Sequence record: MK373784.1
From: Escherichia phage vB_EcoM_MM02
Reading direction: 5' to 3' (one strand)
Length of the DNA stretch: 64,000 bases
Under the pieces are notes generated by a model that saw only the letters and a list, made by a program, of their open reading frames with translations, was not told the origin of the DNA and did no database searches. Positions 15,367 through 60,593 of this stretch are shown here, one piece after another. The first letter of the stretch is position 1, and every line of letters starts with the position of its first letter. A program made the position numbers and the translations under genes.

Positions 15367-15847
15367 TAAAAAGGTAATGATTCCCAAATTAGGGCTCAAA
15401 CATTATAATCTTTTAAAGGACGTTAAAGGCCCTGATGAAAACATGAAAATCTTAGCTGATTCTATTTGTAAAAATATGAGTCCCGCAGATTTTGATTTTG
15501 CATGTCTACACATATTGGAATTTAATAACAAACTTAAGTCTGAAGTTGAAAAAGACGGATTCACTTATAAACTAGATGACGTCTATGTATGCCAACGAAC
15601 AGAATTCCAATTCCAAGGTAATACTTTTTATTTTAGACCCCCAGGCAAATTTGAACAATTCGCTACAATCAGTGAAATGCTATCAAATTGCTTAATAAAA
15701 GTTAATGACGAAGAGAAAGAAATTTCTTTCCTTGAGATGCCTGCTTTTGTAATCAAATGGGCAGAAGACCTTTCGACAACTATTGCTATTCCAGGCCCTA
15801 ATGGTCCTATTAAGGGTGTAGCAGAAATTATTGGATTGCTTGAATGA
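15314..15847 (+). CDS. 28: baseplate hub distal subunit gp28
   Basis: 177 aa; overlaps 3' end of gene 27. Confidence 0.8.
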
Positions 15848-17671
15848 AACCTGAAGAAATGAAATCCATGCGTAGAAATAAGGTCATTGCCGATAATAAA
15901 CCACAAAAAGTAGCTGCAACAGCAGCTACCGATTCATTAGAAGCATTGAATGACATTTCATCAAAACTAGACGATGTCCAAGCCGCGTCTGAACTCACAT
16001 CACAAAGTGTAGAAGATAAAGGCAATGGAATCATTGAATCAATTGGAGACTTAAAGAATTCGACAGATAATACAAGGCAATGGAATCATTGAATCAATTG
16101 GAGACTTAAAGAATTCGACAGATAATACTGCTGAAGGCACAGAGCTTATCGCAGAAGTTATTGAAAAACAAACTGAAGTCACTAAAAGTATAAACGAAGT
16201 TTCTAGTGCAATAAGCTCTAAGTTAGACCGATTAGCTACATTATTAGAGCAAAAATTACAAACATCTACCGCTATTCAAAATACAGGAGGCACCTCTCTT
16301 GAAGTAATTGAGAACGCAATACCTGTTAAAGTGGTTGAGAATGAAACTTCTGATGAGTTGTTTAAAGCATTCCCTACACCTGAAAAGATTGATAATAAGC
16401 CAGACGAAGATTTCTTCCCAGCACCGGTTCAAGAAAGTGCTAATTCTACTTCCGATTCTAAAGGCGGAATTAGCTTTAAATTGAGCGATAAAATTGCAAT
16501 GCTCACCAAAACAGTTCAAACCGGGTTTAATAAATCAATATCAATTTCAGACAGAATTGCTGGAATGCTTTTCAAATACACTATAACGGCTGCTATTGAA
16601 GCAGCAAAAATGGCCGCACTTATTCTTGGTATTGTTATCGGTATTGATTTATTGATAGTCCATTTCAAATATTGGACAGACAAGTTCACTTCTGCCTGGG
16701 ATTTATTTGATGAAAACTTTACTAAATTCTCTGACGAAGCTAAAGAGTGGGGTAAATTCTTAAGTGATATATTCACTTCTATTGACTCTATAAAACAATT
16801 GTGGGAAGCTGGAGACTGGGGTGGTTTAACCGTTGCTATTGTCAAAGGTGTAGGAACAGCATTAATGAATTTAGGTGAACTAATTCAATTAGGAATGGCT
16901 AAACTCTCCGCGTCTATATTGCGTGCTATAGGTTTTGGTGATACCGCTGACGAAATAGAAGGACGTGCTTTGGAAGGATTCCAAGAAACTACTGGGAACA
17001 AATTAAAGAAAGAAGACCAAGAGAAAGTCGCTAAATATCAAATGAAGCGTGACGATGGGGAATTAGGAACCGTTTCTAAAGGCCTTGATATGTTACAACG
17101 TGGCAAAACATTCGTTACTAACTGGGTTCGTGGTAATGACAATAAAGAAGAGTTTAGTACAAGCGATGAGCGTGCTGCGGAATCAGCAAAATTAAAAGAG
17201 TTACCTGAAGAGGAGCGTAAAGAGGCGTATATAAAAGCTAATGAAACTCGTGCGGCACTGGTTAGATTTGAGGATTATATCGATAAAATCGATATGACTA
17301 ATCCAGAAAATGCTAAAAACGTCGAGAAGTCTTATGCTGATTTAAGTAAACTTATTAAAGACCCTGAACTTAATAAAACTCCTGTTGTTAAAAAGGAATT
17401 AGATGCTAGATTTGAAAAGCTAAATAATAAAATGGCTGAAGCCAAAAAGGCTCAGACCACAGTTAAGCCTGAATCTTCGTCTAAATCTCCGGAAGCAAAA
17501 CAAGTTCAGTCAATAGAGAAAGGACGTGCTTCTGAATCTAAACAACAGCAACCGGTAGCGGCGATTAGTAACACAAATAATGTCGTCAAAAAGAATACCG
17601 TAGTCCAGAATATGACCCCTGTAACAAGTACAACGGCTCCTGGAATTTTCCATGCCACCGGTGTTAATTAA
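15844..17671 (+). pseudogene. 29: gene 29 (baseplate hub / tail-length determinator) interrupted by +1 frameshift from a 55-bp tandem duplication
   Basis: Frame-1 ORF 15844-16092 ends at TGA (..DNTRQWNH*); frame 2 open from copy 2 to 17671; removing one copy gives a single 591-codon ORF. Confidence 0.85.
16019..16128 (+). repeat. perfect direct tandem duplication, 2 x 55 bp (16019-16073 and 16074-16128)
   Basis: Both copies read aaggcaatggaatcattgaatcaattggagacttaaagaattcgacagataatac. Confidence 0.95.
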
Positions 17672-26983: not shown

Positions 26984-27013
26984 TTTATTCTCCAGATGTT
27001 TAAGTTGTTTGTT

Positions 27014-27053
27014 GGTACAGGTCTATAATAACATAACCTGTACCAAAGTAAAC
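27014..27053 (-). promoter_or_regulatory. early promoter with embedded 8-bp inverted repeat
   Basis: Minus strand GTTTAC-N17-TATTAT; arms GGTACAGG (27014-27021) and CCTGTACC (27037-27044) flank the -10. Confidence 0.5.
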
Positions 27054-27057
27054 TGTT

Positions 27058-27426
27058 TTATGCAACTTTAATCCAATTGTCTAAATTTAAAACACCTTTG
27101 GCTTTCATTTTTTCTATCAGGTTATCTGCTGTAATGCGTCCATTTTGATACCATGTAACATCTTCAGAGTAACCAGTTTCTTCGTCAACATATGTTTCTG
27201 AACGAATTTTACCGGTAATAATAGTTTTTAATTCGTATGTGTCACCTGTGAAAAAGTTTGCTAACACAATTTTCCAAGAGAAATCATCAGAAGGACCTTC
27301 AGGGGTCATACAACCTACGAACTCAAATTGCTCTTTGTATAACATCCACTGGAATTCTTTAATTTCGATAGCTTTATAACCATCGTGGTCTTTACATTTG
27401 ATGTATGAGTTCAGATTGATTTTCAT
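27058..27426 (-). CDS. hypothetical protein, 122 aa
   Basis: ATG ORF; early promoter upstream; shares CMTP motif with 26618-26983 product (weak, possible paralog). Confidence 0.5.
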   Translation of the reverse strand: MKINLNSYIKCKDHDGYKAIEIKEFQWMLYKEQFEFVGCMTPEGPSDDFSWKIVLANFFTGDTYELKTIITGKIRSETYVDEETGYSEDVTWYQNGRITADNLIEKMKAKGVLNLDNWIKVA

Positions 27427-27468
27427 TTTGTTCTCCAGGTTGTTTTATTGATTAGATGGTACAAGTCT

Positions 27469-27497
27469 ATAGTAACACATCCTACAGGAGAGTAAAC
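27469..27497 (-). promoter_or_regulatory. early promoter (GTTTAC-N17-TACTAT)
   Basis: Upstream of 27058-27426. Confidence 0.45.
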
Positions 27498-27533
27498 ATC
27501 TTTTTAAACTTTTTCTGCCCTAAACGCACAAAA

Positions 27534-27551
27534 GGGAGACCGAAGTCTCCC
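27534..27551 (-). terminator. terminator after small basic protein gene
   Basis: gggagac-cgaa-gtctccc; minus strand followed by tttt. Confidence 0.6.
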
Positions 27552-27556
27552 TAAAA

Positions 27557-27736
27557 TTATGCAACAACCTTTCCAAAACGAGAAGCATCATCTCGAAGAA
27601 CTGCACGTGCTCTGCGCATGATCTTCTCAACTGTTTGATTAATACGAGAGTTCGACCCACGCTTGTATCCAGCGCGTTTAGAGGTACCATCAACTTTCTT
27701 TTCAACTGCTTTCTTTGCTTTAGCTTGTTTTGCCAT
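27557..27736 (-). CDS. small basic hypothetical protein, 59 aa (30.9 position)
   Basis: Hand-translated MAKQAKAKKAVEKK...; ATG 27734-27736; terminator hairpin directly downstream. Confidence 0.45.
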   Translation of the reverse strand: MAKQAKAKKAVEKKVDGTSKRAGYKRGSNSRINQTVEKIMRRARAVLRDDASRFGKVVA

Positions 27737-45785: not shown

Positions 45786-45815
45786 ATAGTAACACACTCA
45801 TTTGAAAGCGTAAAC
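45786..45815 (-). promoter_or_regulatory. early promoter upstream of rnh
   Basis: GTTTAC -35; palindrome AGTCAAGTTGACT just downstream of -10. Confidence 0.45.
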
Positions 45816-57792: not shown

Positions 57793-58139
57793 TTAAACCA
57801 TCCTTTAATACGTTGCCAAATAGATTTTTGTGCTTGTTTATTTACACCAATCGAACGAATAACCGGTTGTGACTGCTGATATTCTTTATAATCTTCTTTA
57901 TAGATTTCGTAAGCTGCATCAACAAATGAACTGATCGCTGCCATGTAGTTTTTACGAAGGCCAAATGGCGCGTCATTATTTTCACGAATAACCGTATATT
58001 GACCTGCTTTAATCTTTACAATTGTCCCTAAATAAGCCCCGTGGTACCAAATATCCCATCCTTCCTGAGTAGGTTCTGCACATTTACGAAGTTCGTTAAT
58101 AATATTCAGCTTATTCATTATGTATTCCTCACAGTACAT
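57789..58139 (-). CDS. hypothetical protein, 116 aa
   Basis: ATG ORF overlapping motA 3' end. Confidence 0.45.
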
Positions 58140-58761
58140 TAGTTACAAGGGTAATGATTTCTTTGGACACATTAGGGAAGTCAATGTAAGTATATTTACC
58201 ACCGATTTTAATCTTAACATCATTTTCAAGAGAAGTAAACAGCTTTGATTCAGTTTCTGACATGTTGTATGCAAAGATTCTAAGAGCGCCATCTCGACGA
58301 ATTTCGATCTGACGAATACCTAGAACTCGTTTTGCAAATCGAACTTCTAAGTTACTACGGTTTTCACCAATTTCTTTAACTTCAACTTTATCTTTAATAT
58401 TTTCAAAAACAAAGTTTGCTAGTTCATGCATTTCAGGAGTAACTCCACGTGCTTTTCTGGTGTTACGTTTTTGAAGAAGTTCTGGAGCATTTTCTTGAGC
58501 AAATAGGTCTGCAGCTTTTTGGATAATATCCATTGCTTCGCCTGTTGCTACAAGTCCATCACCGGATTTTTCGACTAAACCTTTCTTAATCAATACACCA
58601 ATGTTAGAGTTAACAACTGATGCATTGTATTCTGCTTCCAGAGCTTCACGGACATTGGCAGCAGTGGTGAAGTTGTTCTTAATGATATAAACCATTATTG
58701 CAGCAGTTTTTTCATTCAGAGCGTTTTCAGAAGCTTTGATGATGTAAGTAACTTTAGACAT
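58129..58761 (-). CDS. motA: MotA middle-transcription activator
   Basis: 210 aa; N-terminus MSKVTYIIKAS and VVNSNIGVLIKKGLVEKSGDGL match T4 MotA pattern. Confidence 0.85.
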   Translation of the reverse strand: MSKVTYIIKASENALNEKTAAIMVYIIKNNFTTAANVREALEAEYNASVVNSNIGVLIKKGLVEKSGDGLVATGEAMDIIQKAADLFAQENAPELLQKRNTRKARGVTPEMHELANFVFENIKDKVEVKEIGENRSNLEVRFAKRVLGIRQIEIRRDGALRIFAYNMSETESKLFTSLENDVKIKIGGKYTYIDFPNVSKEIITLVTNVL

Positions 58762-58798
58762 TTTATTTCTCCAAATTAGTATTTGTTTTGATAGGTCT

Positions 58799-58827
58799 AT
58801 AATATCATGTTTGAAGCAAAAGTAAAC
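58799..58827 (-). promoter_or_regulatory. early promoter cassette, family C, upstream of motA
   Basis: GTTTAC-N17-TATTAT with embedded TGCTTCA; duplicated at 59121-59149. Confidence 0.5.
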
Positions 58828-58865
58828 TTTATTTTGGGCTCTTTTTCCAAAAGCCCTGGTAAAAT

Positions 58866-59081
58866 TTACAAACTCATTTCTTTAATAAGGCTAATAAGTT
58901 TTGCCTTTTTAGAACGAAGCTTTTCTAAATGATGTCCATTTGAACCGCGAACCACTAAAGAATTGATTTCAACTTCTAAGAAATTTAATTCTTCAACAAG
59001 TGCTTTACGGGGAGCATTCATACCAGGTTTAACTTTACCGAAACGAGTAGTTGTGTTTTGGGTTAATTTCATTTTAGACAT
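58866..59081 (-). CDS. hypothetical protein, 71 aa
   Basis: ATG 59079-59081; shares near-identical promoter and 5' leader with motA. Confidence 0.45.
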   Translation of the reverse strand: MSKMKLTQNTTTRFGKVKPGMNAPRKALVEELNFLEVEINSLVVRGSNGHHLEKLRSKKAKLISLIKEMSL

Positions 59082-59120
59082 TTTATTTCTCCAATTTGGT
59101 TGTTTTGTTTTGATAGGTCT

Positions 59121-59149
59121 ATAATATCATGTTTGAAGCACGTGTAAAC
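59121..59149 (-). promoter_or_regulatory. early promoter cassette, family C, upstream of 71-aa ORF
   Basis: Near-identical copy of motA promoter and leader. Confidence 0.5.
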
Positions 59150-59175
59150 TGTTTTGTGAGGAAAAAATGCACAAA

Positions 59176-59191
59176 GGGAGCCGAAGCTCCC
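59176..59191 (-). terminator. terminator downstream of gene 52
   Basis: gggagc-cgaa-gctccc; minus strand followed by U-rich tract. Confidence 0.55.
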
Positions 59192-59267
59192 TAATCATGT
59201 TTGTCCAACCAATATAGCCAAATCACTAGTACAGCTATTGCACCGAGAAATCCTAAGGCTAGGGCAC

Positions 59268-60593
59268 TCAAAGTGCCTCCAAGTCTTTAGTGTACTCTGT
59301 CACAACATCAGTAGACTTCCAATACTCATTTTCTTCTTTCTTAGCTTTAGCTTCTTCTGCTAGTTTACGTGCTTCGTCGGAAGTGATATGGAAGATGTTA
59401 AGACCTACCAGTTTATCGACATGTTCTTTATACATTTCGATTTGTGCTAGCTCTTCAGTCAAAGCTTTACGAGTCTTGCCCTGAATCACAATTTCACCTG
59501 TAATAACTTTTTTGATGAAGTGTGCCTTAGCAAAAGCAAGTTTAAATGCTTTTTCAGATTCAAGGATTTTATTGTCAATACGTTTCTGAACGTAAGTCTT
59601 ACGGACTTCAACAAAATCTTTGATTAAGTCCACTACGTTATCGTAGACCGCTAATTTACCCTTTTCATTAATCACTGTGATGTTTTGTGAACGACGTTCG
59701 ATGAGACTAAAATCTTTCATGATTTTTTCATGACGTAGCTCTTCATCATCAGGAAGCGAGTACTCTTTACGGAACTTCACCTTAAACCCAAAGCCGTGTT
59801 CACCGCAATCATCTTCCCATGAGATTAGACCTTTGTCTTCCAACGGGTCAAGAACCTTACTCACATACGTTTCACGGTCGAATTTATATGGGATTTCAGT
59901 TATCTGCATTTGAGTGCGAGATGTGAACTTATACGTTCCGTGAATCTCATAACGCCCATCAACTTCATGTACTTCACCACGGAATTCCGGGAATTCAACT
60001 TTTGGCTTAGTGACATTTTTACCTTGAAGAGCTTGTAATACAGCCTTTTTGACTGATTTAAAACTATGAGGCAGAATATTTGTTGCGTAACCGGTTGCAA
60101 TACCAGAGACGCCATTCAAAAGAACTGTCGGAATAATAGGAAGATAGAATTTTGGTGGAATATGTTCTTTATCTTCATGAGCTGGAGCATATTCAGTGTC
60201 TTTATATACGTTATAGAAATTTTTACTTACACGAGCAAAAATATAACGAGATGCTGCAGCTTTTTGGACTGTTCTAGAACCAAAGTTGCCTTGGCCATCT
60301 AACAGTGGATAGTTGTTGTTCCATGTGTTGGCCATCAATGCACCTGCATCTTGTGCAGAAGATTCACCATGGTGATAACCTAAATCTGCAACACCGCCTG
60401 CAATTGACGCAAGTTTATGAAATTTTTCTTTATTACCACGAGCCAAATCTAACGCGCGATGAACCACAAAACGTTGAACCGGCTTAAATCCATCAATCAT
60501 GTTTGGGATTGCACGGTTTTCAACGGTGTACATCGCATATGCTAAGGCTTCGTTATCAATAATACTTTTTAGATTACGAGAATTCAATTGCAT
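59268..60593 (-). CDS. 52: DNA topoisomerase II medium subunit gp52
   Basis: 441 aa; type II topoisomerase A-subunit-like N-terminus (AIPNMIDGFKPVQRFVV). Confidence 0.9.
   Translation of the reverse strand: MQLNSRNLKSIIDNEALAYAMYTVENRAIPNMIDGFKPVQRFVVHRALDLARGNKEKFHKLASIAGGVADLGYHHGESSAQDAGALMANTWNNNYPLLDGQGNFGSRTVQKAAASRYIFARVSKNFYNVYKDTEYAPAHEDKEHIPPKFYLPIIPTVLLNGVSGIATGYATNILPHSFKSVKKAVLQALQGKNVTKPKVEFPEFRGEVHEVDGRYEIHGTYKFTSRTQMQITEIPYKFDRETYVSKVLDPLEDKGLISWEDDCGEHGFGFKVKFRKEYSLPDDEELRHEKIMKDFSLIERRSQNITVINEKGKLAVYDNVVDLIKDFVEVRKTYVQKRIDNKILESEKAFKLAFAKAHFIKKVITGEIVIQGKTRKALTEELAQIEMYKEHVDKLVGLNIFHITSDEARKLAEEAKAKKEENEYWKSTDVVTEYTKDLEAL

Follow-up and report, generated by a model that had tools for sequence, protein, structure and literature searches.

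Direct repeats of a promoter, leader, and start codon bound a presence/absence polymorphism next to motA in RB69-like phages

PeSL (promoter-early stem-loop) elements of T4-type phages are composed of a stem-loop, an early promoter, a Shine–Dalgarno sequence (SD), and a start codon. Pairs of these elements flank small genes of unknown function, mediate the loss and gain of these genes, and leave one chimeric unit (Arbiol et al. 2010, PMC2839356). PeSL shuffling has been described for RB49/phi1, T4/PST, and KVP40/nt-1 (PMC2839356, PMC4122927), and promoters of the T4/PST type follow the consensus TTTACW..TAYWAT (Comeau et al. 2014, PMC4122927). Neither motA, RB69, nor JS98 occurs in Comeau et al. 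2014 (PMC4122927). Here we analyze a stretch of 64,000 nt from Escherichia phage vB_EcoM_MM02 (MK373784.1; hereafter the window), in which two similar cassettes precede motA, the gene for the middle-mode transcription activator, and orf71, an open reading frame (ORF) of 71 codons upstream of it. Sequence comparison places the source phage in Mosigvirus, the RB69-like T4-type group, and the region is 99.9% identical to vB_Eco_NicPhage. By comparison with related phages, we show that the two cassettes are true direct repeats, that they bound a common presence/absence polymorphism, and that they exchange sequence. The cassettes match the PeSL type; the shuffling mechanism is already known, and this example of it is new.

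A repeat from the −35 hexamer to codon 3

The locus reads, along the minus strand, gene 52, stem-loop, copy 2, orf71, stem-loop, copy 1, motA (Table 1). The two copies are direct repeats, each spanning the −35 hexamer to codon 3. In the pairwise alignment, GTTTAC is the same in both copies and is followed by three differing spacer bases, TTT in copy 1 and ACG in copy 2. The next 37 nt form an exact block (TGCTTCAAACATGATATTATAGACCTATCAAAACAAA) that contains the remaining spacer, the TGn motif, the −10 hexamer TATTAT, and the first transcript bases. The leader then diverges (TACTAAT versus ACAACCAAA, with a 2-nt indel), and a 22-nt exact block (TTGGAGAAATAAAATGTCTAAA) containing the SD, the ATG, and the Ser and Lys codons closes the repeat. 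Identical columns number ~68 of 77.

A preliminary description of this DNA had reported a nearly verbatim repeat of ~75 bp at motA and at the 71-aa ORF, with promoter, SD, and start codon inside it and MSK at the start of both proteins. The alignment bears this out with coordinates shifted by 1–3 nt, the anatomy (with a predicted promoter) is as claimed, and both MSK starts are seen in the translations. The description had named similarity confined to generic promoter consensus positions as the outcome that would speak against it, and the alignment does not show such a confinement. Each of the two exact blocks occurs twice in the window, with no occurrence expected from shuffled sequences. When all 15 TTTAC-N16-18-TAYWAT sites in the window are compared pairwise, the longest exact block is 13 nt (median 7) in the other 104 promoter pairs, versus 37 nt in the motA/orf71 pair. 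Therefore, with blocks of 37 and 22 nt, the similarity is not limited to the promoter consensus. GTTTAC, TAYTAT, AGACYT, and TGGAGAA..AAAATG motifs are also present in other early-type promoters of the window, as they would be if the likeness of the copies were only of the kind common to T4-type early promoters and GGAG ribosome-binding sites in general, without a true duplication. However, identity extends to non-consensus positions of the spacer and the leader, and exactly one repeat period is absent in relatives (see below). We regard the idea of a shared consensus without duplication as already refuted and give it almost no weight.

Five of the seven defining features of PeSLs are found at this locus. 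Both copies carry GTTTAC (TTTACW)-N16-TATTAT with a TG at −15/−14, a predicted strong sigma-70-type early promoter. A/T-rich sequences (CACAAAACA and CCCAAAATAAA) lie directly 5′ of GTTTAC. A stem-loop lies upstream of each copy, as in the published subclass with the stem-loop upstream of the −35 element. The SD and the start codon (TTGGAGAAATAAAATG) form the 3′ end of both copies, and relatives differ by the presence of the unit, with a chimeric empty site. A further feature is repetition of the motif family over the genome with a concentration in plastic regions, which is assessed here within the 64-kb window (see below). The remaining feature is the formation of excised mini-circles.

The closest match in organization is with the PeSLs of RB49/phi1. 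Both are composite units, two of which flank a small gene whose presence differs between relatives, and both leave a chimeric empty site (the ORFan192 example in RB49/phi1). Unlike the RB49/phi1 PeSLs, which have near-perfect TTGACA/TATAAT promoters, the motA/orf71 cassettes have promoters of the GTTTAC/TATTAT type. Moreover, the stem-loop here lies upstream of the −35 element and is not a G-run/C-run stem, the homology enters both coding sequences as far as codon 3, and one of the flanked genes is the essential master regulator motA. The promoter consensus TTTACW ... TAYWAT is shared with the PeSLs of T4/PST, which are likewise associated with indels between close relatives (E. coli/Yersinia T-even phages), but the spacer is N16 here and N17 there. 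The T4 motA gene itself resembles the Mosigvirus gene in its position after gene 52, its GTTTAC early promoter with TGn, its GGAG SD followed by an A-rich tract, and its MSK start. By contrast, the promoter and leader are present only once in T4, their spacer and leader sequences differ, and orf71 has no homolog there.

Deletion studies of T4 rII provide a further comparison. There, recombination, homologous or slipped, between direct repeats tens of nucleotides long removes the intervening DNA together with one copy. Unlike the rII repeats, the repeats described here appear to be functional regulatory modules, and the deleted and undeleted forms would both remain correctly expressed.

Presence, absence, and exchange of the orf71 unit

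The search of related phages that the preliminary description had proposed (tblastn with the 71-aa ORF) finds orf71 in 93 phage records, ~76 from Mosigvirus and 17 of the Dhakavirus type. Mosigvirus records holding the 52–motA locus number ~150–155, and roughly half of them are without orf71; in all these counts, some of the records are RefSeq/GenBank duplicates or come from closely related isolates. Among the 60 best matches listed, 28 lack the ORF. In every record inspected (window, NicPhage, SA79RD, ECCR664, JS98, and VR5), orf71 is located in the 52–motA locus, and tblastn gives one place per record, with no evidence of transposition to other loci. In the ECCR664 sequence (OL631257), one A-run of orf71 is shorter by 1 nt (tctaaaaggc versus tctaaaaaggc), and the locus is unannotated there. 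At 134 kb, this genome is probably a low-quality or incomplete Mosigvirus assembly.

Ten GenBank phages and two IMG/VR contigs without the ORF were read at the junction. All of them have just one cassette in front of motA and are shorter by exactly one repeat period. The junctions are of two types, both inside the repeat, which strongly supports the earlier proposal that the repeat is a substrate for recombination. In class A (VIPECOMC06, 308Ecol101PP, phiC120, 172859UKE1, JM10, GADS24, S143_2, EP32B, DCP548, and the two IMG/VR contigs), the empty site has the copy-2-type leader (AAAACAACCAAATTGGAG) up to ATGTCTAAA, followed by motA. Therefore, the crossover is in the 22-nt SD-ATG-TCT-AAA block. 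One of the two contigs equals phiC120 in both flanks and may not represent an independent genome. In class B (RB69 and PTK), the upstream part is that of copy 2 (gene-52 hairpin, spacer ATA or ATG) and the leader is of the copy-1 type (AAATACTAATTTGGAG). Therefore, the crossover is in the 37-nt core. The positions of the repeat blocks give spacings between the copies of 320 and 322 nt. Since there are two junction classes, the minimum number of recombination events is two. Pattern scans of IMG/VR return the two class A contigs and none for the class B and ORF-plus patterns, the collection holding too few Mosigviruses.

Collapse of a 320-bp direct repeat unit is possible with short-read assemblers, and the ORF-less genomes could in principle be assembly artefacts of this kind. 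However, the repeat itself is only ~75 nt, below typical read length, with unique sequence between the copies, and the empty site recurs in dozens of independent records from many laboratories with two reproducible junction types. In addition, RB69 was reportedly sequenced by Sanger methods. An assembly artefact is hardly credible as the explanation.

Pairwise distances among ten of the sequences, calculated from motA together with the last 601 nt of gene 52, are small and mosaic. ORF-plus and ORF-less genomes interleave on these flanking-gene distances. In particular, RB69 (class B) and phiC120 (class A) are 4 nt apart in motA, and SA79RD, which has the ORF, is equally close to class A genomes and to the window. 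The interleaved flanks fit repeated events or recombination between co-infecting phages.

The Dhakaviruses JS98 and VR5 also have an orf71 ortholog between gene 52 and motA, but only the promoter core (−35 to about +10) is duplicated in them. Both Mosigvirus copies have TGCTTC/TATTAT, whereas both Dhakavirus copies have TGCTTT/TACTAT. The spacer bases are TTC in both copies of JS98 and TTA in both copies of VR5, and the copy-2 spacer of SA79RD is now TTT, the same as copy 1. Because the two copies of one genome agree at positions where the genera differ, this pattern indicates concerted evolution between the two cassettes. The leaders and start regions of the Dhakavirus copies differ from each other, and the ORF starts with MNK. 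In all Mosigviruses, the 22-nt block from the SD to codon 3 is the same in both copies, and the ORF starts with MSK. Since the 22-nt identity is absent from Dhakavirus, whose ORF begins MNK, we take the identity of the start codon regions to be a Mosigvirus-specific homogenization that changed one protein residue, not an ancient conserved feature. It looks recent.

The orf71 product belongs to phrog_6200, a family of unknown function. Its dN/dS is ~0.2 (0.20–0.25) relative to the Dhakavirus orthologs, on the strength of which we take orf71 to be a real gene. Its dS (~1.1) is near that of motA (~1.0), and this closeness suggests that orf71 has been co-inherited with motA since the Mosigvirus/Dhakavirus split. 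A Pfam search with orf71 gives no match (best E 0.16), and a search of 5.8 billion proteins gives only 8 clusters, all from the same phage groups. The AlphaFold model (pLDDT 76) predicts a disordered basic N-terminus and a generic two-helix hairpin, for which Foldseek finds no hit in the PDB better than E 0.8.

The history could also be read in reverse, with the single-cassette state ancestral in Mosigvirus. A co-infecting phage would then have supplied orf71 plus one cassette in a recent insertion, as a mobile PeSL module or mini-circle, and the ORF-less genomes would show the unfilled site and not a deletion. The published PeSL model works in both directions (PMC2839356), and insertion would account for the numerous class A empty sites with an unbroken copy-2-type cassette as well as for spacer and leader differences that look as if the copies came from different sources. 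Other genera also carry different small ORFs in the 52–motA interval. However, the Dhakavirus ortholog lies at the same locus with a synonymous divergence equal to that of motA, which argues for vertical inheritance, and the RB69/PTK chimera of copy-2 upstream part and copy-1 leader is best explained by a crossover in a two-copy ancestor. We consider recent insertion not very likely. Either direction would involve the same repeat-mediated mechanism.

Predicted expression signals and a model for the cassette pair

The known features of T4 early promoters are an A-rich upstream region, GTTTAC at −36..−31, TGn, and a −10 hexamer (PMC1524935, PMC2988021). In T4, MotA is made early, and its mRNA is cut by RegB within the GGAG of the SD (PMC2988021). 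The RegB/S1 site consensus is GGAGRAYARAA (PMC1702504), and RB69 encodes a diverged RegB that cuts GGAG (PMC3014915). Both leaders of the motA/orf71 pair contain GGAGAAAUAAA, which matches this consensus at 9/11 positions, missing positions 7 and 8; the T4 counterpart is GGAGAUUAGAA. RegB may thus inactivate both mRNAs together at the predicted sites. The leader of ~33 nt is predicted to be unstructured (z about 0), and RNA folding finds no structure hiding the SD. Co-regulation of orf71 and motA from shared signals, as the preliminary description proposed, is a reasonable inference.

The hairpin after gene 52 (stem at 59175-59192) folds with −14.7 kcal/mol (z −2.4) and the hairpin between orf71 and motA with −12.2 kcal/mol (z −2.6). 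In JS98 and VR5, G-C to A-U and G-U changes preserve the stem of the latter. In the annotation of SA79RD, the gene-52 hairpin is a rho-independent terminator and the orf71–motA hairpin a terminator. The gene-52 hairpin is followed by UUUGUGCAUUUUUU, a plausible U-tract; a terminator scan of the window does not call this hairpin on the minus strand. The orf71–motA hairpin is followed by AAAAUAAAG and does not have the U-tract of an intrinsic terminator. It is probably an attenuator or an RNA-stability element rather than a full terminator. Because it has no U-tract, motA probably also receives read-through from copy 2.

Mosigviruses differ in the tetraloop of the gene-52 hairpin (59181-59184): some have TTCG, others have the reverse complement CGAA, and EP32B has TTCGAA. 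The variation is independent of junction class, and the loop looks as if it had been inverted repeatedly by template switching within the hairpin.

Within the −35/−10 spacer, at about −25..−22, both copies carry a GCTT(Y/A)AA(A) element (58811-58818 and 59133-59140, minus strand). The TGCTTYA heptamer is enriched in the window (57 observed versus 25 expected). The MotA box, (a/t)(a/t)(a/t)TGCTTtA, sits 12 ± 1 bp upstream of the −10 element, with GCTT at −30..−27 (PMC2988021, PMC1524935). A reading of the cassette as a MotA-dependent middle promoter is rejected, since the MotA-box-like TGCTTCA of TTTTGCTTCA is just 7 bp from TATTAT. Elsewhere in the window, an early-type promoter at 45786-45814 (minus strand; GTTTAC-GCTTTCAAATGAGTGTGT-TACTAT) has GCTT at −30..−27, the MotA-box position, and may be a combined early/middle promoter.

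The spacer element raises the question of whether selection on an operator, rather than exchange, keeps the copies identical, with GCTT(Y)AAA acting as a misplaced MotA box for MotA autorepression. GCTTnAA is conserved at this position in motA promoters from at least six genera, represented by Mosigvirus, Dhakavirus, Moonvirus, Gelderlandvirus, Karamvirus, and one Klebsiella phage, and the T4 motA promoter has an inverted AAGC at the same position. Furthermore, T4 motA− infections show over-expression of several early genes, and early shut-off is mechanistically only partly explained (PMC2988021). However, the element is 7 bp from the −10 hexamer rather than 12 ± 1 bp, and MotA alone is a weak DNA binder (PMC2988021). 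Selection alone would also leave the identical leader/start-codon block and the paralog-specific, neutral-looking substitutions unexplained. We consider selection on an operator unlikely as the reason for the identity of the copies; an operator could hold alongside the recombination explanation. In its most extended form, which we regard as a long shot, GCTT(Y)AAA would be a MotA-box core shifted by ~5 bp toward the −10 element and an operator for MotA self-shut-off. The duplicated cassette would then put orf71 under the same loop and the same RegB cut, as a stoichiometric partner or modulator of the MotA/AsiA switch.

The explanation that we favor, and consider likely, is that orf71 is flanked by two PeSL-type cassettes that act as homologous recombination repeats and shuffle the 320-322-bp unit. 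In this model, orf71 and motA would be transcribed immediately after infection from equivalent early promoters and translated from identical ribosome-binding sites. With the same GGAGAAAUAAA RegB-like site in both mRNAs, the two genes would be switched on and off together, and motA would additionally be fed by read-through from the upstream copy. Comparison of the relatives shows that exchange of sequence between the cassettes gives rise to their concerted evolution and to the MSK start of orf71 in place of MNK. A crossover between the cassettes deletes, or in reverse inserts, the orf71 unit, with a single chimeric cassette left before motA.

Several points weigh against this explanation. Given heavy recombination among co-infecting phages, the two junction classes set a minimum for the number of independent events, and each event may have been a deletion or an insertion. 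Promoter activity, start sites, and co-regulation are predictions from sequence. The −35/−10 spacer is 16 nt (in the TTGACA register), versus 17 nt in most other early-type promoters of the window, and the putative RegB site fits just 9 of the 11 consensus positions.

Locus layout, related elements, and meaning

The coordinates of the cassettes and of the neighboring genes are collected in Table 1.

Table 1 Features of the 52–motA locus (positions in the window)
Feature	Position	Strand	Remark
Gene 52, DNA topoisomerase II medium subunit	59268..60593	-	441-aa ORF; gp52 annotation in relatives; upstream neighbor
Stem-loop AGGGAGC-UUCG-GCUCCCU, then UUUGUGCAUUUUUU U-rich tail	59160..59192	-	terminator-like; stem-loop part of the upstream cassette
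Repeat copy 2: predicted orf71 promoter, leader, start	59073..59149	-	alignment, 77 nt
Copy 2, promoter parts	−35 GTTTAC 59144-59149; TG 59128-59129; −10 TATTAT 59121-59126	-	
Copy 2, downstream parts	+1 ~59114; GGAG 59089-59092; ATG 59079-59081; TCT AAA to 59073	-	+1 placed from spacing
orf71, 71-aa protein, phrog_6200	58866..59081	-	ORF list and PHROGs match
Stem-loop GGGCUUUU-GGAAA-AAGAGCCC, between orf71 and motA promoter	58836..58856	-	then AAAAUAAAG
Repeat copy 1: predicted motA promoter, leader, start	58753..58827	-	alignment, 75 nt
Copy 1, promoter parts	−35 GTTTAC 58822-58827; TG 58806-58807; −10 TATTAT 58799-58804	-	
Copy 1, downstream parts	+1 ~58792; GGAG 58769-58772; ATG 58759-58761; TCT AAA to 58753	-	+1 placed from spacing
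motA, middle-mode transcription activator	58129..58761	-	210-aa ORF; phrog_1345 match, E 4.8e-90
Unit absent from ORF-less relatives, class A register	58753..59072	-	320 nt; crossover in 22-nt block
Unit absent from ORF-less relatives, class B register	58782-59103	-	322 nt; crossover in 37-nt core

A hydrophobic 26-codon ORF (MSALALGFLGAIAVLVIWLYWLDKHD) at 59191-59271 (minus strand) begins at a TTG that overlaps the gene 52 stop codon (TGA), with GGAGG 4 nt before it, and is conserved across the Mosigvirus alignment. The annotation of NicPhage has an ORF on the opposite strand at this site instead. By position and composition, the 26-codon ORF is an analogue of T4 MotA.1 (49 aa) and S16 gp174.1 (45 aa).

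The 52–motA interval is plastic across genera. In T4 and S16, it holds just a small hydrophobic ORF, and other small ORFs occupy it in Klebsiella phage Biddle_MM4, Moon, and CW742. In Citrobacter phage Moon, the interval contains two copies of a motA-type promoter (AACCGTTTACATCCGCTTTAA, 21 nt identical) at 1032 and 1687 (minus strand). The upstream copy precedes unrelated small ORFs (CPT_Moon287/286), the same design with a different cargo.

The 15 TTTAC..TAYWAT sites of the window include further members of the cassette family. A second related pair of early promoter and leader (TATAGACYTGTACCA...CTGGAGAAnAAAATGA) lies at 26984-27057 and 27427-27560 (minus strand), flanking a 122-aa ORF at 27058-27426. 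In the downstream cassette of this pair, an inverted repeat (GGTACAGG ... CCTGTACC) brackets the −10 box. Before the upstream cassette lies GGGAGAC-TTCG-GTCTCCC-TTTTGTGC, which closely resembles the terminator-like hairpin of gene 52. The same 18-nt hairpin (GGGAGACTTCGGTCTCCC; GGGAGAC-TTCG-GTCTCCC, with a UUCG tetraloop) is present at least four times in the window, at about 4385, 27529, 42548, and 50870, in both orientations. The copies, in intergenic-looking A/T-rich contexts, appear to be a dispersed family of terminator hairpins.

Elsewhere in the window, 16019-16128 (plus strand) is an exact tandem duplication (2 × 55 nt, 100% identical), at a site where relatives annotate the genes for the baseplate hub/tail length determinator (gene 29) and the baseplate hub distal subunit. 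The 12 best-matching relatives listed are without it, a 501-nt query mapping to 446 nt. The 55-nt insertion shifts the frame and splits the ORFs into 15844-16092 and 16331-17671. Either the duplication is an artefact of assembly or sequencing, or it is a mutation that disrupts an essential gene.

The current understanding of T4-type phage biology is unchanged by these findings. The 52–motA locus provides an unusually well-resolved natural case of PeSL shuffling, in which ~150 near-identical genomes commonly show either the occupied state or one of two distinct empty states. The crossover points can be placed with a precision of a few nucleotides, and the N-terminus of a protein has been altered by exchange between the copies. 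Apparently, a recombination joint can lie in the promoter and start codon of motA, an essential master regulator, without loss of expression. For phage engineering, the gene 52–motA junction would be a site where insertions are tolerated in nature and where early expression signals are already in place, but any construct placed between the repeats is expected to be lost by recombination.

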